DNA of 35,845 nt from a virus: the IMG/VR virus record IMGVR_UViG_3300017739_000038; one strand, given 5' to 3'. The notes under the pieces were generated by a model, which was given only the letters and a program-made list of their open reading frames with translations, ran no database searches and was not told the DNA's origin. Of the stretch, positions 1 through 35,845 are shown piece by piece. Position 1 is the first letter of the stretch. The number at the start of each line of letters is the position of its first letter. The position numbers and the translations under genes were made by a program.

Positions 1-834
1 AATCCACATAAGTTTCCTATCTTTATTTATTGCAACCTTTATAAGAGTTGTTGGGTCAACAGAGAATCCAAAGTCTTGTCCAAATATATAATCAGCATCA
101 TTATTAAATGGTCCTATCTTCCAATTATTAAATACAACTCCTTCTGCTTTGTCTAACCATCCACCCATTATCTGATGATTATATCTATCTGGTCTTCTGC
201 GTCTAATGTCTTCTAATTGTAAAAGAAAAGAATCTGATAGGTTATCAATGTTATCTTTAAATGTTGTGTGTATATATGTAACATTATCTTTCCAGTTATT
301 AGTTCCTGGATTTACAGCTTTAGCTGCAAAGAATCTTTGATATAACCAATGTTCTTTTGTGGCTGGGTTCAATATCATTATAACCCTATTAGGTTTATTC
401 TTAGCTCTGACTGATTGGTCTATCTTATCAAAATCCTCCTCCTTAGTCATCTCTTCAGCTTCATCAAGTACCCATGTAGTTATGCCATTTATAGACTTCA
501 GAGCTGCTGTCTGATTACCTGCTGATGTACGAATGCCTTTGAATATTATAGAGCTTCCAGTGCTTGTGTTTAAGATTTCATCCTTAGTTATTCTAAAATG
601 CTCTACAATATTATATAATTGTAACTTTTCTAGGAACTCTGGAATAATCGAATTAGAAGCACTTATCATAGTGTACCTAGTGAATAGTATCTTATGACCC
701 TGTTCAAACGTTAGAAAGGCTAAAAAGGTGGTTATAGCGAATGATTTACCACTACCTCTACCTCCAGTAATTACAAAGTACCTTGTATCGTTACCAAGTG
801 AATTATATTTCTGATTCAGAACTGGCTTCTTCAT
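1..834 (-). CDS. terL: terminase large subunit, N-terminal ATPase part. The ORF runs off the window start and continues at 35722->35351 (401 aa when joined).
   Basis: Hand translation from the ATG at 834 gives MKKPVLNQKYNSLGNDTRYFVITGGRGSGKSFAITTFLAF... (Walker A GGRGSGKS) and ...GITTWVLDEAEEM (Walker B). 834 nt is exactly 278 codons, and the frame is continuous with ORF 35351..35731 across the end overlap. Confidence 0.9.
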   Translation of the reverse strand, partial: MKKPVLNQKYNSLGNDTRYFVITGGRGSGKSFAITTFLAFLTFEQGHKILFTRYTMISASNSIIPEFLEKLQLYNIVEHFRITKDEILNTSTGSSIIFKGIRTSAGNQTAALKSINGITTWVLDEAEEMTKEEDFDKIDQSVRAKNKPNRVIMILNPATKEHWLYQRFFAAKAVNPGTNNWKDNVTYIHTTFKDNIDNLSDSFLLQLEDIRRRRPDRYNHQIMGGWLDKAEGVVFNNWKIGPFNNDADYIFGQDFGFSVDPTTLIKVAINKDRKLMWI

Positions 835-18432: not shown

Positions 18433-19947
18433 TTATTTACTTGATTTTGGATGTTTAGATGGTAAAATGTCATTGTCAGTAGTGTACTTTGCATTTTGTG
18501 GTCTTCCATTCTTCACTAAATACAAAAACGCATTGACTCGTGCAAATGCCCATTGTGAAGGACTATTTACTCTAGGAGAGCTACTCCTGTTAAATGCACC
18601 AAGACCTCTTTGGAAGACCGAAGCTAACATACCAACTGTAACACCATAACCTAATTTTTGTTTATATCTTTTGTTAAAGTCATCAGCTTTGTTCTGTAAT
18701 GTTTTTCTATCTTTCGCAGAAACCTTTGCTCCTGTTTTACCTTTTGCTGTACCCCTAGCTGTACCCTTACCTTTTGGGTTTCTATTAGGCGTATCTGATT
18801 TAGGTGCTTTTGGTGATTTTCTTATACCACCTTTTGGTCCAACCTCTGCAAGTGCGTGTTGCTTACAAGGCATATACCAAGTCTGATTTTCAAACTCGTG
18901 TTCGTGTATTCCTTCACATCCAATGTCACCTGCTATTTTTTCTGCTTGTTCTTTTGAAGCATAAGCAAGTCTATCCATTATAATTGCAAAGTCATCATTT
19001 ACTTTTTCAGAATATAAATCTACAGATAGTTCATCTAATCCTTTAAGTTTTGATTCTGTCCAGTTAAACATAGACTTACCACCCCATAATAAATATGATA
19101 TAGTTCCACAAGCTTCATTGTCTCCTGCCTTGTAATAAGTTTCTGCTCTAGATAAATAAGAGTATATGCGTTTAAGAGTAGGCAAAGTAAATTTTTCTCC
19201 TCTTTCTAATTGTCTTGCTCTAGTTTTACCAACAGCAGTAGCACATTTATTATTGACTTCTTTATTGTATTTTATACCTCTTACAGCATTATTTCTTGCA
19301 GCTTCTGGATAACCACCATAAGATTCTAATTCTACTTCTTCTGTTAATGAAGCTAAAACTTCTTTTAATTCATATTCTGCATTTAATTCATTTATCTTTT
19401 CTTCTATGCTTTCTTTAGGTCTTTCAAGTCCATCAGCAAAGTATCCTTCTATAGAAAATCCCTTAACCTCACCATCTTTTACAGCTTTCCATACTTTATC
19501 ATTTAATACTTTCATAGATACCATCCAAGTACCTTTTGGTAAATCAAATCCATAAGCAGCAGCTTTATCTTTTTTTGGGTCTTCTATAAGCCAAGATTCT
19601 ACAACAGACATATCTTTTAAATCAATAGAATGTTCAAATGTAGAGTTCTGATGTTTGTTTTTTATAAAGAATAGCTCTGATGCTTTTCTAACTGTATCTT
19701 CCGAGAAATATATATAATAATTATTTTCATCATCATCAGCACCTTTTCTAAATATCTTTTTATTAGGAATTAGTGCAGGTCCCATTAGTATTCTTTTCTC
19801 TGCATCAACTTCTGCAAGTCTTACTTCATTGTGTTCTTTAAGTGCTATAAAATCTTCTTCTATAGCTGGATTTTCAACTATTGATATTGCTTGAATACCA
19901 CTAATCTCATTTTCTTCATCTATAATTAATTCTATGATTTTTTCCAT
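18433..19947 (-). CDS. multidomain head-maturation protein: XkdF-like (Peptidase_S78_2-type) N-domain plus three further conserved phage modules (504 aa)
   Basis: The N-domain is GIQAISIVENPAIEEDF...GPALIPNK...VESWLIED...GTWMVSMKV..VKGFSIEGYF. Middle segments are YPEAARNNAVRGIKYN...GKTRARQL...LWGG and GCEGIHEHEFENQTWYMPCKQH. The C-terminal segment is GVTVGMLASVFQRGLGAFNRSSSPRV.SPSQWAFARVNAFL. Confidence 0.6.
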   Translation of the reverse strand: MEKIIELIIDEENEISGIQAISIVENPAIEEDFIALKEHNEVRLAEVDAEKRILMGPALIPNKKIFRKGADDDENNYYIYFSEDTVRKASELFFIKNKHQNSTFEHSIDLKDMSVVESWLIEDPKKDKAAAYGFDLPKGTWMVSMKVLNDKVWKAVKDGEVKGFSIEGYFADGLERPKESIEEKINELNAEYELKEVLASLTEEVELESYGGYPEAARNNAVRGIKYNKEVNNKCATAVGKTRARQLERGEKFTLPTLKRIYSYLSRAETYYKAGDNEACGTISYLLWGGKSMFNWTESKLKGLDELSVDLYSEKVNDDFAIIMDRLAYASKEQAEKIAGDIGCEGIHEHEFENQTWYMPCKQHALAEVGPKGGIRKSPKAPKSDTPNRNPKGKGTARGTAKGKTGAKVSAKDRKTLQNKADDFNKRYKQKLGYGVTVGMLASVFQRGLGAFNRSSSPRVNSPSQWAFARVNAFLYLVKNGRPQNAKYTTDNDILPSKHPKSSK

Positions 19948-26287: not shown

Positions 26288-29200
26288 TCAATATATATTA
26301 ACACTTGAACAAGAACCAAAGTCATAAACTGCACCTGGTCTAATTCCTGCTGTTGACATTCCAGTATAACCTATTCTAAAATAGTTTCTGTTTTCGTTTA
26401 TTCTAAAATTAGTTTCTGTTGTAGGTGCATATAGTGTACTTAAACTAGGGTCAGAATATAAATATGTGTTATCTCCAAAAGTCCCTACATAATAAACATT
26501 TACATCATAAGTGTTAAGAGTATTACAAGCTGCTGTTGAATTTAATGCAGAAGTTAATGATATTCTCATAACCTTTATACTAGATGGTCTTGTTGGTGTT
26601 ACAGTCGGTGGAACATAATTTGCAGCAGTACAATCTCTATATGTTACTAAATCTTCTACGTTAATAACAGTAGCATCACTTGAAGCTTGAGGGTTAAAAT
26701 AACTTAATCCTTCAAACTTAATAACGTCTGGAAAACTATAGCCACTTGTTCCTGTACCAACAACTAATGTTTGACTTGTATCTGTACATAATTGATACAC
26801 TCTTTTATTAGTAAGCCCAGTAGAAGATGGTGTTGTTCCACCTAAACAAGTTGCACAATCATTAAAAAATTGTGCATTAGAAGGATATTCTCCTGCTGCT
26901 TCATTATAAGCATCATTACCAGAAATAGCTAAACTTTTACAAGTATTTGTAGCATTACCAACTCTAAATACTAGTTCTAATTCAGAGTCAGAAACAATAT
27001 ACTCTAAAGTTCCTTCTGGCACTCCACATAATCTATAAGCACCATAAAACTTATTTGGGTCTATCAGTTGTTCAACTACTTCCTCTGTAGATTCTTCTTC
27101 TATTTGATTTACACAAGTGTCACAATCACCAAAAGGTTGTAATCTTGCTATATAATTTTCTTTTTCAGCACTTTCTACTATATAAGTACCATTAGGCATA
27201 GCAAAAGTGTCTTCATATTGAGTTACTATTGTATAACAACCCTCTCCACCAGTTTGACCAAAATCTTTTAAGTGTAATATTGTATCTACATTATAACTAA
27301 AATCTTTAAACACAAAATATTCAGTTGCACCAGCACTAGTTTGATTAGAACATCTTGTTAATGCTAATTTTTGTATTGTTCCAGAAGTAGGGTCAACAGG
27401 GTCAGTACAACTATTATTGCCACAAGGACCTAAAGTATAAGTTGAAGAACTTCCTGATATTTCTCTAATACTTCCATTAGAACCATCTGTACTATTAGAA
27501 TATGTTCGACTAGTTGTAGCTAGGGTTTGACCAGTTGCATCTTCAAAGAAAGCAGTAGCTAAACAAAATTCATTAGCACCATTTCTATCTGCATATAGAG
27601 TAATAGGCGTACCACTACAAGCTGCTTTACTTGGTAATAATGATGAACTAAATTTTGCAGAATATTGTGTTCTATTTTCCCATATAATTTGTAAATCACT
27701 TGTATCGCTTGTACCACTAACACTACAATTATATATCTTAGTTCCTGTTGTTGTTTGTGTCTCACCTCCACCTCCTGATTCATTTATAACTAATTGTTGA
27801 CTTGTAGCACCACTTATATCAGATAGAGTACCACCTGAATCTGCTTTACTCCATTGATAAGATGGATTTGTTATATTTTGTGATGAAGCTGTTAATACTG
27901 TTCTTTGACTAACGTATGCTTTACCTTGATTGTTACCATCTGATGTTGACATACTTAACGATACAGAAGGAGTTGTGTTTGATTGAGATGTAGTTCCACC
28001 CTCTTGTCCAGTTTCTATACTTTGATTACAAGGCGTAACATCAACTGCAAATCCACCAGCTATATCGTCACCATATATTTTACAATAAAAATCGGCAGGG
28101 TTGCCATCAGAACCTGTTAGTATTATTTTATACCAATTACCTGTTCCACCAAATGGGTTAGATATATGACCAGCACCTGACCTGTTTGTATATAAAGTAG
28201 CACCACTACCATCAACGTTATTACCTACAATAGAACCAACATAGTAAACTGGTATATCCGCAACTAAAGCACAAACATCACTACCATCAGTTCCAGGGTT
28301 GGTTACATAATCAGAAGATACTAACGCTTCGTTAACTTCTGTTTCTATAATGCTACCACCACAATCAGTTGTTGAGTTACAAGTAACAAGGTTTGATAAT
28401 CTACCATCACAAGTAGCACCTATCCTACCTACTTTGACATCACTTCCTACAACAAAATTATAGTATTGTCCAGAGCTTGAGTATGGTATTGTAAGTGCTT
28501 CATTTTTAAATAAGAAAACACCATTTGCTAATTCTGTTCCACCTGTCAAAGACCTAAAATAAGCTGTTTCTCTATTTGTTTCAGCACAAGCACAATTAGG
28601 CGTACCTTTACCAGTAACTGAAACTTGTACTTCTTGTGGAGTTCCAGCAGTTACAGAGTCAAGTATTGTTACAGATTTTACAGAATCGTTTGGTGCTGTA
28701 TTTGTTATGCCGTCTAATGTAATAGTAAATGTTTCACTTCCTTCAGCAGAACCATCTAATTTAGCTTCAAAGTCTAATTCAGCACCATTATTAAAAACTT
28801 GAAATGCTCCAGTTAAACTACCTCTAACTAAATCGGAAGCACTAACACCTGTAATAGTAAAAGGAACCAATGTGTTGTCTGGAACATTTGATGTGTATAA
28901 GCTTATTTTAAAAGGACATCCTTCAATAGTTTCAGTGGTGCTTCTACCCAAAACATACCTTGCAGATTCAGATACTGTACCTGTTAGTGTTGAAGCTAAA
29001 GTTACGTTAGCTTCACCAAATGTACCACTAAAACTAGCAGGAGTTGCTGTAAGTGCTGGACTTGATGTATAATCATTAGCATGAGCCAAAGCTATTGAAA
29101 AACTGTATGAGTCTCCATTTCTACCTTTTACTTCAAATACTTGTGTTTTTGTTTTATTTATTTCAGGTGTTGTTTGTGCTTGTATAGATGATGATTGAGT

Positions 29201-29656
29201 TACAAACCCTGTATAACCTATTGATGATATAGATGGTAAAATGTCGTTTGTTATTGTAAGTCTTGCATAGTATTGAGTTGCAGTTGCCCAAGACACTATA
29301 AATGCAGTAGCAGTAATTGTGTTACCGTCTGAGTCTGTTGTACTACATCCATAAGATATTTCTTGATTTGCTACACCTCCACCTAAGGTAACAGTTATAT
29401 CTATATCTGCTGTTGTACCTGATGCACCAGTACCTGTCCAAGTATAAGTTCCTGAACTTGTAAAGTTGACTGGTATAGCTCTAAGTGTTATAGCAGAACC
29501 AGAAGTTCCTTGACCTGGACTGTCTGATGTAGTTAAATCTGCGTTAACTTGTACTATCTTTAATTGGTATGTATCAGTATCTGAAGTAGTAACCACTTCG
29601 CTACCTGCACCAATTACATAATAAGGACTTCTGCTGTTTATTTTATTGACTGCCAT
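26288..29656 (-). CDS. giant Cys-rich virion protein (1122 aa)
   Basis: Ser/Thr/Gly-rich with Ig or Calx-beta-like stretches (VPFTITGVSASDLVRGSL...SETFTITLDG...SVTILD). I count about 27 cysteines, often paired (CAC, CDTC, CATC, CGNNSC). Confidence 0.5.
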   Translation of the reverse strand: MAVNKINSRSPYYVIGAGSEVVTTSDTDTYQLKIVQVNADLTTSDSPGQGTSGSAITLRAIPVNFTSSGTYTWTGTGASGTTADIDITVTLGGGVANQEISYGCSTTDSDGNTITATAFIVSWATATQYYARLTITNDILPSISSIGYTGFVTQSSSIQAQTTPEINKTKTQVFEVKGRNGDSYSFSIALAHANDYTSSPALTATPASFSGTFGEANVTLASTLTGTVSESARYVLGRSTTETIEGCPFKISLYTSNVPDNTLVPFTITGVSASDLVRGSLTGAFQVFNNGAELDFEAKLDGSAEGSETFTITLDGITNTAPNDSVKSVTILDSVTAGTPQEVQVSVTGKGTPNCACAETNRETAYFRSLTGGTELANGVFLFKNEALTIPYSSSGQYYNFVVGSDVKVGRIGATCDGRLSNLVTCNSTTDCGGSIIETEVNEALVSSDYVTNPGTDGSDVCALVADIPVYYVGSIVGNNVDGSGATLYTNRSGAGHISNPFGGTGNWYKIILTGSDGNPADFYCKIYGDDIAGGFAVDVTPCNQSIETGQEGGTTSQSNTTPSVSLSMSTSDGNNQGKAYVSQRTVLTASSQNITNPSYQWSKADSGGTLSDISGATSQQLVINESGGGGETQTTTGTKIYNCSVSGTSDTSDLQIIWENRTQYSAKFSSSLLPSKAACSGTPITLYADRNGANEFCLATAFFEDATGQTLATTSRTYSNSTDGSNGSIREISGSSSTYTLGPCGNNSCTDPVDPTSGTIQKLALTRCSNQTSAGATEYFVFKDFSYNVDTILHLKDFGQTGGEGCYTIVTQYEDTFAMPNGTYIVESAEKENYIARLQPFGDCDTCVNQIEEESTEEVVEQLIDPNKFYGAYRLCGVPEGTLEYIVSDSELELVFRVGNATNTCKSLAISGNDAYNEAAGEYPSNAQFFNDCATCLGGTTPSSTGLTNKRVYQLCTDTSQTLVVGTGTSGYSFPDVIKFEGLSYFNPQASSDATVINVEDLVTYRDCTAANYVPPTVTPTRPSSIKVMRISLTSALNSTAACNTLNTYDVNVYYVGTFGDNTYLYSDPSLSTLYAPTTETNFRINENRNYFRIGYTGMSTAGIRPGAVYDFGSCSSVNIY

Positions 29657-30083
29657 TGATTATATCATTTAAATCTTCTAAATAACTCTGTTCTATATCT
29701 TTTGTTAAAATAGGTAATATGTTTCCAATCACTTCATCTAAAAAGTTTGTTCCTTTATATCCTTTAATTCCAATAGATTGTGCCATTCTGTAAGCTGCTT
29801 TTTTTTGTTTACTTTCGCTCATCTCATTTGCTAAACCTTTTACCTTCATCCATTCAAGTATTGGTCTATAAGGTGGTGGTGTTTTACCTGGACTTCTACC
29901 ATAGTTAACCCAATACCAATAATAATTAGAAAATATGCTTATATTGTTTTTTGTGTATTCACCTCTAAAGCTTCTTTGTAAATCTCCTGTAGCATTACTA
30001 CCGTCAGTACTAAGACGGTCTTTTAGTTGGCTAACGATTTTCTGCGTATATTGTTCTAATAAAGCGTCTGTTCTTTTTCCCAT
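29643..30083 (-). CDS. HK97 gp10-like head-tail joining protein (146 aa from the ATG)
   Basis: ATGDLQRSFRGEY...SNYYWYWVNYGRSPG matches the gp10-family pattern (TG.Lr.S......yA.yvEyG). The track start at 30089 is a TTG. The ATG at 30083 forms a TAATG junction. Confidence 0.5.
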   Translation of the reverse strand: MGKRTDALLEQYTQKIVSQLKDRLSTDGSNATGDLQRSFRGEYTKNNISIFSNYYWYWVNYGRSPGKTPPPYRPILEWMKVKGLANEMSESKQKKAAYRMAQSIGIKGYKGTNFLDEVIGNILPILTKDIEQSYLEDLNDIINGSQ

Positions 30084-30544
30084 TAGCAAAGTGATAATTC
30101 GTTAGTAGGCACTTCTATACTTATAGTAACACCCCAACCAGCTAATTGATTCTCAAAGTTGTCTTGAAATGGTTCTGCTACTATGTCTGATGTTACTTGA
30201 AAGTTATCTGAGAAAGCATTTCCTCTTCTCATCTCTTGTTGTATGTCATTTACCACTTGTAATTGTGTGTTTAAAATATCTTGCAAGTTATCATTGCCAA
30301 ACATCATATCTTCTGTTTGTTTCTCTTTTGTTACATCTACTATGTCTAAACATAATATTCTTATATTAGCAGAAAGTATATGGTCACTAAAAGTTACATT
30401 ACCAAAAAACACATGAGCCAAAGGAAATATAGTTGTTTTGTTTAAGTCAACTTCTGTTAAGTCACCGAAGGTGACAGTTTTCGTAATTCCGTTTGCTCTA
30501 AGTATTTCTTTTACTTTGTCTAATATTGTATAAACTTGTCTCAT
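30083..30544 (-). CDS. putative neck / tail-completion protein (153 aa)
   Basis: Call rests on position next to the gp10-like gene and on N-terminal resemblance to tail-completion families (VYTILDKVKEILRANGITKTVTFGD....KTTIFPLAHVFFG). Confidence 0.35.
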   Translation of the reverse strand: MRQVYTILDKVKEILRANGITKTVTFGDLTEVDLNKTTIFPLAHVFFGNVTFSDHILSANIRILCLDIVDVTKEKQTEDMMFGNDNLQDILNTQLQVVNDIQQEMRRGNAFSDNFQVTSDIVAEPFQDNFENQLAGWGVTISIEVPTNELSLC

Positions 30545-30802
30545 TTTATATTTTGTTTTATCATTTTACTTTCTAATTCGTTTTTCTCCCTTTCAAATTC
30601 TAACCAGGTTAAACATTGAGAAATGGGGAGTTTTGTAATTTCTTCAAATTTTCTGACATCTCCTGAAGCAAGTGCGTAAATTGATTGATACCAACCCCAT
30701 TTTGCTCCAAACGACTCTTGAAGTCCGAGTCCTCTTTCAGTTGATTCGTTAAAGAGTCCATCAAATGTTTTGATAATTCTGTCCCTAAAGTGTAAAAAAA
30801 AA
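30541..30802 (-). other. -1 frame extension reachable only by a slip at the U9 run. The predicted trans-frame product is 178 aa (0 frame) plus 84 aa.
   Basis: The -1 frame has no stop from 30858 down to 30544 (105 codons checked triplet by triplet) and no ATG until 7 codons before its end. Its TGA (30541-30543) overlaps the ATG of the next gene. Confidence 0.4.
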
Positions 30803-31328
30803 CCGTAGCTCCTAATGCTACTTGTATAGGAGAATCTTTCATAACTTCTGAATATTTCTCAGAGCCTTCATAATCTTCAACTAAATAAAATTGATTCTTT
30901 TCGTGTGTGACTGGTCTATATAATACTGCCATAGCTTTGTGCATTTGTTGCCAATCACTAATATATTTTTCTAAATCTACAAACTCTCCCATAGATATAT
31001 CTTCTAATTTAGGAATAAATCCAAATGTTACTTTATTACCGTCTGGGTCTATCATATCAAATTTGTTTTGCAATTTATTGTCCACATTAAACAACTCGTT
31101 GATGTGATTTATTACTGATGTAAATTCTGTCATTGGTAATTGATATGCTTCTTTTAAGTTTACGTTGCAAAAACATTCTAACAGCTTAAGATTAGAAAAC
31201 TCCACTTCTTCTTGAGTTGGTTCTTCTTTTTTAGTTAAATGCTCTACATCATTTATATACTTTTGATATTGACCTAACTTTATATCACTCAAAGATGTAG
31301 GGATGTTTAGTGTGACCGTGTTACTCAT
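30609..31328 (-). CDS. first gene of the virion module, hypothetical (239 aa in the 0 frame), with an internal slippery run
   Basis: ATG at 31328. The product is acidic and helical. It contains ACG GTT TTT TTT TAC at 30794-30802. Confidence 0.6.
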   Translation of the reverse strand: MSNTVTLNIPTSLSDIKLGQYQKYINDVEHLTKKEEPTQEEVEFSNLKLLECFCNVNLKEAYQLPMTEFTSVINHINELFNVDNKLQNKFDMIDPDGNKVTFGFIPKLEDISMGEFVDLEKYISDWQQMHKAMAVLYRPVTHEKNQFYLVEDYEGSEKYSEVMKDSPIQVALGATVFFYTLGTELSKHLMDSLTNQLKEDSDFKSRLEQNGVGINQFTHLLQEMSENLKKLQNSPFLNV

Positions 31329-31533
31329 ATTATTATAACCATTTATTATTATTATGTAGTAAAGATATAAAAATAAAACACTTTTGCATTTATTAGTTAT
31401 ATTATCGAAGATTAAGAATTACAAACAATTTGAAATCTTCTCTGATAAATAATAAGTTAGGTTTAGGATAATTATATTCTTTTTATTAATTTAGCTTATG
31501 TAAGTATTTTTCATATTATAAAGTTTTGTTTAA

Positions 31534-31560
31534 AGCTCTGATTGTTTTCAGGGCTTTTTT
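31534..31560 (+). terminator. plus-sense rho-independent terminator in an otherwise minus-strand genome
   Basis: AGCTCTGA-ttgttt-TCAGGGCT forms 8 bp with one G-U, followed by a T5-6 run on the plus strand. In minus-sense RNA the wobble becomes a C-A mismatch and there is no U tail. Confidence 0.45.
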
Positions 31561-31794
31561 CATATCTGCTTGAATTTCCTTAAGTGGAGAAACAATACCC
31601 CTACTGACTCTATTTACGTCAATCTCTCATATTATCTCAATACAGAAGATTTAAACCACTGAAAAGAGTTTCAGCAATGCGTAGAATTTAAAAGTATTTT
31701 TAATCCCTTAAACCTCCTGTATTTTGATAATCAGCCAAATAGAAAATAATTTAATTTTATAATTGACTGGCTAAATATAAACTAAACTAATAAT

Positions 31795-31938
31795 TTAATA
31801 ACGCTCATTTAAGAACGTTTCTAGCTCGGAATAACTAACAGTATTCCAGTCTTTATTATTGTCCCTTAAATCGTCTAAAACTAAGTAAGGTTCTATAAAA
31901 TAATCTCCACAAAGAGATATAAAAGTTTGCTGTGTCAT
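31795..31938 (-). CDS. small hypothetical protein (47 aa)
   Basis: Hand translation: MTQQTFISLCGDYFIEPYLVLDDLRDNNKDWNTVSYSELETFLNERY. ATG start; non-repetitive composition. Confidence 0.45.
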   Translation of the reverse strand: MTQQTFISLCGDYFIEPYLVLDDLRDNNKDWNTVSYSELETFLNERY

Positions 31939-33558: not shown

Positions 33559-33678
33559 TTATGCTTTATTATATTTATGCCATTTATCAATTATAGGTTC
33601 GTCTGTGCTATAATCAATATAAAAAACATAATCATCTATTTCAACGTACATTACGTGTTTTCTAATATCTAATTTCAT
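33559..33678 (-). CDS. small hypothetical protein (39 aa)
   Basis: Hand translation: MKLDIRKHVMYVEIDDYVFYIDYSTDEPIIDKWHKYNKA. TAATG junction with the 446-aa gene. Confidence 0.4.
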   Translation of the reverse strand: MKLDIRKHVMYVEIDDYVFYIDYSTDEPIIDKWHKYNKA

Positions 33679-35018
33679 TACCAAGCTGTTAAGGTTAACT
33701 CTGAAATATCATAGGAATCCAGAACTTCTGTTGGAAACTTCCATTTCCAGTTATCAACTTTATAGCTTTGATTTAGATTATCATAAGCAATCTTATCAAA
33801 ATTAACCTCCTCATGAATACTAAAATCTAATATACCAAACTCTAAAACATTTTCTTGATATCCCTGTAAAAAGTCTAAATACAATCTAGGGTCAACTAAC
33901 TTATCAATGTACATTGGAACATATATTGCTTTAGCGTCTTTGATTTTACCAGTCATTAACTTATCATCAGATATATAAAACATTTTTTTTATCCAGATTC
34001 TAAGCTTTACCTTACTTTCTAATCTTTTCAATACATCAATTTGATTTACTCCATGAATAGTATCTGTATTGTTAGGATAAAACTTTCTACACTTATTCAT
34101 CTTAGAAGTATCATATCCCCACTCAATCATCTTTTCAGTAGTATCTGTATTTAAAGGTTTGATTATAGTAGAATCTACATTGTTATATAACCATTGCCTA
34201 TAATTAATCCTCCTTTGTCTCTTCAGTTCATTAAGCTCATCTCTAAGCTCTGAAGTCTCTGGAAAATATGTTACATTAACTTTGTCATGAAACTCATTTG
34301 TCATAACCATAAAATTAGAAGTGTTGAGTAAAAGTCTTTGATATAGAGCAAAATCATTTGCAATATTTATATAGTCAATTTTGTTATACTCATCATTATA
34401 ATGCGTATGAAATCTTCTACCAAGCTCTAATTTATAAACATAGTATTTTCCTTTATTACTATCTTCAGAATCATGTGTAAAATAAACTTGATATTTAATA
34501 AAAGCTCCCAAATCTTCTGAAAGCTCTCTAATATCTCTGTATATGTTTTTAGCAAAAGTTTCAGACATACCACAGATATTTTTATCAAGATACCTAACTC
34601 TTATTTTACTCTCATAAGTATCTTTATCAAAAAGATAAAAATATAAGTGAAATGAATCTTGAGAAAAGCCATTAGTATAAAAATCCTCAAAGATTTCATA
34701 GGTTATTTCACTACCAGATTTTGCTTCAATTATTGGTAGTAACTCTTCTCTTTCAGAATCTGAAAAATTAACAACTACATTTCTAATAGAATCATATTCT
34801 AAAATATCTGGACACCTCCAGAACTTTTTGAACCTAGTATCCCATACTAAAACATTATCCTCTAAAGTGTTTAACTCACTTAAATAAGCTTTATAAAGTT
34901 TTTTAATATCCTTTTTTTGCCTATTTAATTCTAGCTTATTAATCTTATTAATGCTAGTTTCTGCGTTAGATATTTGTTTATCTAACTCTTTGTATTTGTG
35001 TTCGTAATTATTATTCAT
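33678..35018 (-). CDS. large ORFan protein (446 aa from the ATG)
   Basis: A long open frame in a stop-rich AT genome. No motif recognised. The track start at 35039 is a TTG lying inside a TAGGTTTG box. The first ATG at 35018 gives MNNNYEHKYKELDK... Confidence 0.7.
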   Translation of the reverse strand: MNNNYEHKYKELDKQISNAETSINKINKLELNRQKKDIKKLYKAYLSELNTLEDNVLVWDTRFKKFWRCPDILEYDSIRNVVVNFSDSEREELLPIIEAKSGSEITYEIFEDFYTNGFSQDSFHLYFYLFDKDTYESKIRVRYLDKNICGMSETFAKNIYRDIRELSEDLGAFIKYQVYFTHDSEDSNKGKYYVYKLELGRRFHTHYNDEYNKIDYINIANDFALYQRLLLNTSNFMVMTNEFHDKVNVTYFPETSELRDELNELKRQRRINYRQWLYNNVDSTIIKPLNTDTTEKMIEWGYDTSKMNKCRKFYPNNTDTIHGVNQIDVLKRLESKVKLRIWIKKMFYISDDKLMTGKIKDAKAIYVPMYIDKLVDPRLYLDFLQGYQENVLEFGILDFSIHEEVNFDKIAYDNLNQSYKVDNWKWKFPTEVLDSYDISELTLTAW

Positions 35019-35036
35019 ATTATAAAAATTATGGTG

Positions 35037-35044
35037 CAAACCTA
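35037..35044 (-). promoter_or_regulatory. candidate Bacteroidota-type -7 promoter box (TAGGTTTG)
   Basis: Exact TAnnTTTG on the minus strand, 19 nt upstream of the ATG at 35018, with no clear TTTG -33 partner. The 8-mer is expected tens of times by chance in this genome. Confidence 0.25.
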
Positions 35045-35350: not shown

Positions 35351-35845
35351 CTACCTTATTACATAAACGCCTTTATTTGCGTTGGCGAGGAAATACTGTG
35401 CTGAGTATCGAAGTGCGTCTAACTGATGGTTCCATTTATCAACAGGTTTTTCGTTCCTCTCATGCCAAACATAATTATTTAGCTCTTTTATCAGCTCTAC
35501 ACTATCAGCATCAATTATTAAATCATAGTCCTGAACCAGAGCAATCCCTGTCAGAATAGACCCACTGCGTTTAATGGTCGGCTTTAGGTTACAGTATTCT
35601 TGTAGCTCTGAGATAAGTCTAGGTTCTGCATTGTCACATACAATTATACTATCTTCTGCATAACGCCTATTGAGTTCTCCTATCTCTTTAGTAGATAAAC
35701 CTGGTTTAGCATACATAGTTTTAATCCACATAAGTTTCCTATCTTTATTTATTGCAACCTTTATAAGAGTTGTTGGGTCAACAGAGAATCCAAAGTCTTG
35801 TCCAAATATATAATCAGCATCATTATTAAATGGTCCTATCTTCCA
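35351..35845 (-). CDS. terL: terminase large subunit, C-terminal nuclease part. 35351..35722 is unique; 35723..35845 duplicates bases 1..123.
   Basis: ...IVCDNAEPRLISELQEYCNLKPTIKRSGSILTGIALVQDYDLIIDADSVELIKELNNYVWHE...DALRYS. It is in frame with 1..834 across the overlap. Confidence 0.9.
   Translation of the reverse strand, partial: WKIGPFNNDADYIFGQDFGFSVDPTTLIKVAINKDRKLMWIKTMYAKPGLSTKEIGELNRRYAEDSIIVCDNAEPRLISELQEYCNLKPTIKRSGSILTGIALVQDYDLIIDADSVELIKELNNYVWHERNEKPVDKWNHQLDALRYSAQYFLANANKGVYVIR
35723..35845. repeat. 123-bp end overlap identical to bases 1..123 (circular or permuted assembly closure)
   Basis: Direct comparison: aatccacataagtttcctatc...tggtcctatcttcca is present at both ends. 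Confidence 0.95.

Follow-up and report, generated by a model that had tools for sequence, protein, structure and literature searches.

A gene at the head of the virion-morphogenesis block of a marine Flavobacteriia phage carries what we take, with a probability of about 80%, to be a programmed −1 recoding site, which would give rise to two proteins with a common N-terminal part and different C-terminal tails. The phage is represented by IMG/VR record IMGVR_UViG_3300017739_000038, a stretch of 35,845 nucleotides (nt) that was analyzed whole and is called the window here; among isolates, the only relatives found were Nonlabens phages P12024S and P12024L (genus Inhavirus). The gene, named gene X in this study, is the minus-strand open reading frame (ORF) at 31328..30609 together with its −1 extension. 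We propose that most ribosomes would read through GUU UUU UUU UAC to produce a protein of 239 amino acids (aa), whose stop lies 64 nt short of the following gene, and that a fraction would slip back one base with tRNA-Phe on the UUU codons (U_UUU_UUU), entering the −1 frame to produce a protein of 262 aa. The 84-residue C-terminal part of the longer product, which bears a KWGWY motif, would then pack against the N-terminal part common to both products. Any slipping is most likely to occur on the ribosome; on a run of nine T's, RNA polymerase slippage inserting one U would yield the same protein (...VFF-L...) and may add to its amount. The compared sequences themselves show a conserved two-frame layout, selection acting on each frame, and a −1 ORF that lacks a start of its own; from them we infer that slipping takes place, how efficient it is, and which isoform is the more abundant.

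The slip site is a run of nine T's on the coding strand (T9; 30794..30802, minus strand; A9 on the plus strand), set in the minus-strand context GCT ACG GTT TTT TTT TAC ACT. Read as GTT TTT TTT TAC, it contains the heptamer U_UUU_UUU (T_TTT_TTT; 30801..30795, minus strand), a slippery motif of the form X_XXY_YYZ in the register of the 0 frame, as expected of a programmed −1 frameshift site. The 0-frame ORF (30609..31328, minus strand) encodes the shared N-terminal part, residues 1-178, followed by a 61-residue tail that ends at TAA (30611..30609). Decoding after a slip would resume at TTA (30795..30793) and pass through the 84 codons of the −1 tail (30541..30795, minus strand; LHFRDR...KWGWY...KQNIK) to a TGA, and the resulting trans-frame protein would join residues 1-178 to this tail at ...GATVFF|LHFRDRIIK...KWGWY...KQNIK. 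The 0-frame tail overlaps the −1 tail over a dual-coding stretch of ~183 nt (30609..30794, minus strand). In the −1 frame, 30861..30541 translates as a stop, then 105 sense codons (30544..30858, minus strand), 21 of them upstream of the T9 run, and then the TGA. The sole ATG of this frame lies 7 codons before its end, and a search of the −1 frame of gene X in the window for ORFs of at least 40 aa starting with ATG, GTG or TTG found none; an open, start-less −1 ORF that encodes a conserved protein is a second mark of a programmed −1 frameshift site. The terminal TGA (30543..30541) shares bases, as ATGA, with the ATG (30544..30542) of the downstream gene (30083..30544, minus strand; 153 aa; matching the uncharacterized phrog_30964), and this overlap recurs in 47 of 70 unique relatives. 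Since the −1 stop overlaps the downstream start, the −1 frame appears to be the frame built into the operon coupling. A sequence-only reading that preceded this analysis had pointed to the in-register heptamer at A9, to a −1 frame free of stops from 30858 to 30544 that opens about 20 codons before the run and lacks an ATG until 7 codons from its end, to the ATGA overlap, and to 61 open codons in the 0-frame tail; re-reading and translation of the minus strand bore out each of these. At a G+C content of 31%, T9 alone is unremarkable: by a rough estimate, chance would supply ~0.3 per strand, and the window holds four runs of nine. It exceeds chance because it is conserved in relatives.

Conservation was assessed at 199 loci in two samples. 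The first comprised 83 loci (70 unique; 29-86% amino-acid identity), namely 80 of 276 tblastn-confirmed IMG/VR relatives, P12024S and P12024L, and the window; the second added 116 loci seeded from divergent family members. All 199 encode the C-terminal KWGWY domain in the −1 frame. At the homologous codons, 180 have T9 or T10, 16 have A_AAT_TTT and 3 have T4 or T6, so that the conservation expected of a programmed −1 frameshift site, including substitution by other slippery motifs, holds throughout (199/199). Every locus of the first sample has T9 or longer at the homologous spot (83/83), mostly in phase 1 with six T9 in phase 0, and its one T10 locus arose through an A-to-T substitution. The second sample contributed 86 loci with T9, 11 with T10, 16 with A_AAT_TTT and 3 with T4 or T6, the −1 layout being present in 116 of 116. 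The A_AAT_TTT clade, whose 16 loci share 59-97% mutual identity, lacks a long run and reads GTA/GCA/ATA AAT TTT ATA/ATT, its heptamer constant while the flanking codons vary. Two of the short-run lineages have xCT TTT ATG and one has GTT TTT TCT, with the −1 domain kept in all. The −1 tails of the first sample span 78-89 codons and its 0-frame tails 55-79 codons (25 in P12024S/L); across both samples, the 0-frame tail covers 55-84 codons in most relatives, with 21-30 only in the P12024S/L clade. The family as a whole numbers 3007 cluster representatives at E <= 0.001. As the sequence-only reading had anticipated for a genuine frameshift, relatives have not lost the second frame, and most retain the U-run.

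Judged by these relatives, T9 in gene X is a conserved frameshift signal, not a sequencing error. The sequence-only reading had allowed for a homopolymer error as well as for a programmed −1 frameshift, and the run, the start-less −1 ORF, the −1 domain at 199 of 199 loci, and the heptamer swap in one clade decide in favor of the latter. It had also held that evidence for A8 or A10 would refute a frameshift by restoring a single ORF. Single-ORF relatives do occur in databases (11 of the 120 best word-index matches and ~15 of 150 cluster representatives; 256-261 aa in the T10 cases), and the three that were traced to DNA are all T10 (L084:847-856, L085:2012-2021, L086:925-934), but such entries are rare, and each of these three lies on one contig, one of which is labeled as 2.23x coverage. 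Rare long variants would moreover be over-represented if cluster representatives are the longest members, as we assume. The T10 single-ORF entries may reflect errors in the homopolymer or may be genuine variants in run length. For the window's T9 to be the error, and the true gene a single 262-aa ORF with T10, the same fault would have to recur in 199 of 199 independently assembled loci that require a −1 shift, in a gene whose 0-frame tail is held open by selection, and in near-identical alleles of the window's 239-aa protein (P0001) on 9 contigs from four sources (NCBI, JGI, Logan, and ENA); we regard the chance of this as practically negligible.

Other length variants were seen among the database proteins. 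Two shortened proteins of ~180 aa (P0037 and P0106) end as a run one base shorter (T8-type) predicts, as read from their protein ends alone. Four single ORFs (P0126, P0144, P0156, and P0253) have a 0-frame tail of ~3-50 residues followed by −1-type sequence (KWGWY or the C-terminal helices); these may be natural lineages fused by a downstream indel, or assembly errors. Long homopolymers mutate fast, and with both T10 and T8 variants among the database entries, a phage population might flip between T9 and T10 by replication slippage, each genome then making one isoform. Such phase variation at the DNA level is very improbable: lineages with A_AAT_TTT or short T runs would be unable to vary in this way and still keep both frames, an in-frame T10 fusion was found in 0 of 196 IMG/VR loci, and an assembly gene switched off in part of each burst would presumably be costly.

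Both frames of the overlap bear marks of selection. Because raw codon-position diversity is confounded by codon degeneracy, a synonymous-site test was used instead, in which divergent pairs were compared at identical residues and the synonymous differences observed were divided by the codon-usage expectation. The ratio was 0.99 for the 0 frame in the single-coding N-terminal part. Within the overlap it was 0.69 for the −1 frame and 0.43 for the 0 frame, and in the −1-only stretch it was 0.82 for the −1 frame. These ratios indicate that the −1 frame is the dominant constraint, with the 0 frame adding a weaker one. In an openness test, the amino acids of the −1 tail were held fixed, synonymous codons were resampled and the open length of the 0 frame was recorded. 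A 0 frame as long as that observed arose in 0.4% of trials for the window (at least 61 codons), with a median of 0.6% over relatives and a simulated median length of 6 codons; the exception was P12024S/L, whose 25-codon tails were not significant (P ~0.24-0.26). Selection maintains the 61 open codons of the 0-frame tail (P ~0.006). One possibility is that this tail would hold ribosomes on the mRNA as far as the following gene and so avoid polarity in the late operon. Neither frame is well conserved in the linker region.

The nearest isolates bear directly on whether gene X is one gene or two. A DNA search of GenBank phages gave no match; at the protein level, Nonlabens (Persicivirga) phages P12024S/L were the only ones found, at 29.6% identity and with the match in two pieces. 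The corresponding codons of P12024L are CTT TTT TTT TAT, a T9 in the same register, followed by an open −1 frame (...FF|LSFRERL...KWGWY...). The records of P12024L (JQ823123.1, 23946-24640) and P12024S (JQ823122.1, 23136-23830), loci L083 and L002 of our sample, annotate gene X as two hypothetical proteins of 175 aa and 55 aa with no ribosomal-slippage feature. Taken at face value, they describe two separate genes, the downstream one starting independently, and P12024L does have an ATG six codons ahead of the KWGWY motif. We consider two genes hardly tenable. Ahead of KWGWY, the −1 ORF has no ATG in 68 of the 70 unique relatives and no GTG or TTG in 61 of 70, the window's −1 frame has no start that would yield at least 40 aa, and the slip site itself marks the onset of conservation in the −1 frame (L-x-F-R-x-R). 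Structure prediction likewise argues for a single protein. AlphaFold2 modeled the 262-aa trans-frame protein as one confident unit (mean predicted local distance difference test score [pLDDT] of 82.8; predicted template modeling score of 0.79), in which a helix (residues 168-188) passes through the slip junction, residues 196-211 form a disordered linker, and the helices of the −1 tail reach a pLDDT of ~73-90. For the 239-aa form, the N-terminal part was again confident and the 0-frame tail (residues 180-239) was helical at low confidence (pLDDT 34-56). Mean identity to relatives is 0.56 for the −1 tail compared to 0.51 for the N-terminal part. The two-gene annotation in GenBank probably needs correcting.

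How the frame is changed can be approached through the variety of motifs at this position. The existence of relatives that lack a long run (A_AAT_TTT, T4, T6) makes RNA polymerase slippage untenable as the family-wide mechanism. What the motifs share is a Phe UUU codon after a U, a site at which tRNA-Phe could re-pair, and ribosomal −1 frameshifting on Phe codons is therefore the mechanism we favor across the family, on the strength of these aligned motifs; transcriptional slippage may contribute on T9 in this genome. In the A_AAT_TTT clade (L101, L105-L118, L144; e.g., L101:1671-1795), a 13-bp stem formed by ACCGUUUAGGGA with UCUCUAAACGGU begins 3-4 nt past the heptamer, encloses ~75 nt, and pairs with the codons just before RWGWY. 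One of its pairs covaries (AU 6, GC 3, GU 2), the others are invariant, and the stem does not occur in the window. We regard it as a candidate frameshift stimulator for that clade. A stimulatory element is common but not obligatory at programmed −1 frameshift sites, and the window's clade has no detectable one. Rfam, searched over 30300-31900, gave no match. Just upstream of the run, a terminator scan picked out a terminator-like 5-bp hairpin (30821..30805, minus strand; GTAGC-ATTAGGA-GCTAC followed by GG and T9). It was rejected as a stimulator, as its pairing is not conserved (mean z −0.09). In principle, this hairpin (30805-30821) could cause transcription to pause or end, or promote slippage of the polymerase.

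In the T9 lineages, the window's among them, transcriptional slippage (programmed transcriptional realignment) might instead be the main route, RNA polymerase stuttering on the template's nine A's, one U being added to a fraction of mRNAs, and the 262-aa protein then being made by ordinary translation. We consider this unlikely, if well short of negligible. A run of at least nine T's is found at 180 of 199 loci, including the 6 in other phases and 12 with T10, and nine is the length of the RNA:DNA hybrid (PMC5009743). A ribosomal stimulator is undetectable in the window's clade, and E. coli genes contain fewer U7 and A7 runs than expected, transcriptional slippage being one possible reason (PMC4066793). 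A9/T9 slippage sites are documented in secretion-system genes and insertion sequence (IS) elements (PMC5009743). A run of about nine or more A or T is present in gene X, as at known transcriptional slippage sites, but it is not indispensable: 16 relatives with A_AAT_TTT and 3 with T4 or T6, 19 whose motifs are too short for polymerase slippage, keep the two-frame layout. The two T's beyond the heptamer are also explained by the codons they belong to (xTT for Val, Leu or Ile; TTA or TTG for Leu in the −1 frame), and the upstream hairpin that might stimulate slippage is not conserved.

Several observations weigh against a programmed −1 site in gene X, and the first is that the entire case for it is comparative inference. 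The T9 clades have no conserved downstream structure (the RNAalifold consensus was empty and the per-sequence mean z was −0.3), and the window's clade has neither a conserved upstream element (mean z −0.09) nor long-range pairing (mean z −0.37; −7.4 kcal/mol and z +1.2 for the window itself). That a run of at least nine T's is kept despite differing phase, as at the six phase-0 loci, is also a signature of transcriptional slippage, and homopolymeric U7 is prone both to such slippage and to indels (PMC4066793). Pfam, NCBIfam and PDB sequence searches with the gene X protein returned no match. Matches in BFVD are all to uncharacterized phage proteins, some of them single ORFs of 258-267 aa at ~25% identity. 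The minority of single-ORF database proteins (T10 in the three that were checked) would, if real, be variants living without the 0-frame isoform.

Homology gives few clues to the function of gene X. Residues 7-196 match phrog_32199 (E 1e-16), and PHROGs otherwise yielded only phrog_38404, both uncharacterized. Foldseek of the model against PDB found no solved-structure match (best E 0.7). A small terminase subunit was considered and rejected, there being no fold match; the likelier candidate for that role is a small ORF overlapping the start of the large terminase (TerL) in P12024L. Literature searches returned nothing on the gene X family or on phrog_166, a 'tail protein' family to which 8 of 45 diverse family members have weak matches (best E 5e-4). 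On the minus strand, gene X is followed by genes of 153, 148, 1122, 357, 981, 703, and 504 aa, and beyond the last of these lie further genes, including a capsid-like gene of 307 aa, then the portal, more genes, and finally tail fibers. The 148-aa gene has a weak Neck1/tail-completion match, and the helical product of the 703-aa gene is tape-measure-like by composition alone. Gene order is the same in relatives, with TerL upstream.

The surrounding genome has features of its own. An exact 123-nt direct repeat occupies both ends of the window (1-123 and 35723-35845), and once these ends are joined the minus strand reads through the junction as a 445-aa large terminase (PBSX-type, like that of P12024L); the 126-aa 'ORF' at 35351..35731 is merely its C-terminal piece. 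The terminal repeat and the terminase across the junction mark the window as a complete, circularly assembled genome of ~35.7 kb. Between the terminase and gene X lies a 453-aa ORF (33678-35039, minus strand), rich in Asn, Tyr and Lys and without a PHROG, Pfam or NCBIfam match; in P12024L gene X directly follows the terminase, and the 453-aa gene and nearby small ORFs therefore look like a lineage-specific insertion. The gap immediately upstream of gene X (31329-31794; ~460 nt, noncoding) contains a 10-bp G+C-containing hairpin (31532-31557) with a plus-strand terminator score and is probably the late-operon boundary and promoter region. Farther along the block, the 1122-aa protein (26288-29656, minus strand) is rich in Ser, Thr, Gly and Cys and has no family match. 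In relatives L205 and L206, a gene of ~175-198 aa, the counterpart of the 148-aa gene, adjoins one of ~350-409 aa, which makes the 1122-aa gene an extra in this genome. The 504-aa protein (18433-19947, minus strand) combines an XkdF-type serine protease (PF14550), DUF3721, and DUF5824 in one chain, and in L206 the XkdF-type protease is a separate 205-aa gene.

Gene X might be a two-isoform assembly factor resembling λ G/GT, whose common part would dock onto one partner, leaving the alternative tails to recruit or release a second; we hold this only tentatively. A more specific form would make it a displaced G/GT-analogue pair of tail assembly chaperones, the shared part binding the tape-measure-like protein and the −1 tail binding the tail tube. 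It is a tentative possibility too. Within the morphogenesis block no gene other than gene X has a conserved frameshift, the 703-aa tape-measure-like gene is not preceded by a pair of small ORFs, the weak phrog_166 matches point to a tail, and the lack of any solved-structure match would fit a protein that is absent from virions. Yet three large genes stand between gene X and the tape-measure-like gene, in relatives as well, and gene X shows no similarity to tail-assembly-chaperone families in Pfam or PHROGs. The slip site, moreover, lies 61 codons ahead of the 0-frame stop rather than near it, and the tape-measure call itself is drawn from composition. With no chaperone match and a position apart from the tape-measure-like gene, gene X is no more than a putative chaperone. 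The sequence-only reading had likened gene X to λ G/GT-type chaperone frameshifting: the expression logic holds, and the chaperone part finds no support in position, family or structure. It had also observed that the gene is the first of the virion module and does not adjoin the tape measure, which the gene order confirms.

Gene X could alternatively be no tail chaperone at all but a two-headed morphogenesis protein of a new kind, whose ancestral full-length fold is reached through the frameshift only and whose second tail was overprinted on ~183 nt, under selection across thousands of marine phage genes, with the isoform ratio on T9 set jointly by ribosomal and RNA polymerase slippage. We rate this reading as doubtful, somewhat below the chaperone pair. 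If true, the conserved dual-coding stretch would be unusually long for a DNA phage, and sister clades, T9 compared with A_AAT_TTT, would allow the two slippage mechanisms to be separated in a natural setting.

Whichever function applies, the frameshift in gene X appears to be unreported in the literature and is unannotated, the GenBank records giving two genes. That phage morphogenesis genes use programmed −1 frameshifts is textbook knowledge, but gene X departs from the paradigm in its position within the block, in a selected overlap of 55-84 codons, in a trans-frame form that is predicted to be well folded, and in the alternation of T9, A_AAT_TTT and a tetramer at one site. Gene callers, like the P12024S/L records, split or truncate the gene, and a conserved C-terminal domain is consequently missed in much marine Flavobacteriia phage sequence. 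Almost every structural gene is unannotated in this group of phages. The deep conservation of the recoding suggests that two isoforms are presumably needed in a fixed ratio, and the assembly step in which they would act is worth study. Hosts in the Bacteroidota make little use of Shine-Dalgarno pairing. With T9, A_AAT_TTT, and a tetramer at one homologous site together with the long overlap, gene X provides a comparative series in which the trade-offs among slip-site strength, stimulators, and polymerase slippage could be followed in Bacteroidota.

Among known recoding systems, λ G/GT is the closest in logic. Like that pair, gene X would use a −1 slip on a slippery heptamer to make two products that share their N-terminal part, the trans-frame ORF having no start of its own, in our case as read from sequence. 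The λ G protein terminates a few codons after its slip site. The sequence-only reading had called dual open frames downstream of a slippery site the hallmark of λ G/GT, which is mistaken, since the 61-codon overlap in gene X is unusual by that standard. In gene X the 0 frame continues for 55-84 codons in most relatives and is kept open by selection, and its slip site is not near the 3′ end. The gene is first in its block, five genes upstream of the tape-measure-like gene, rather than between the tube and tape-measure genes. It uses T9 where λ uses G_GGA_AAG, and it has neither sequence nor fold similarity to known chaperone families, including the Pfam Phage_TAC_* families and those in PHROGs. 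In λ G/GT (and in P2 E/E+E'), the −1 frameshift arrangement has persisted among highly divergent phages even though the sequence has not been conserved (PMC5009743).

Other recoding sites share separate aspects of gene X. HIV-1 gag-pol, which slips on U_UUU_UUA, and other slippery heptamers with Phe codons resemble it in the proposed tandem re-pairing of tRNA-Phe on a U-rich heptamer, and the A_AAU_UUU of relatives of gene X is likewise of the X_XXY_YYZ form; gene X differs in its bacterial host, a member of the Bacteroidota, its fully homopolymeric nine U's, and the lack of a detectable downstream hairpin or pseudoknot in the window's clade. The transcriptional slippage sites of Thermus dnaX, Shigella mxiE and spa13, and some IS elements have in common with gene X an A/T run of nine and a trans-frame C-terminal extension for an assembly machine (PMC5009743). 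They differ in that relatives of gene X with A_AAT_TTT, T4 or T6 keep the layout and that an upstream stimulatory hairpin is not conserved. T7 gene 10A/10B and the γ/τ products of E. coli dnaX are alike in producing two isoforms by a −1 shift that are presumably used together, as those of gene X would be. In those systems, a short tail is added or removed, whereas gene X would exchange one tail for another, 61 residues for 84, encoded over a selected stretch of ~183 nt.

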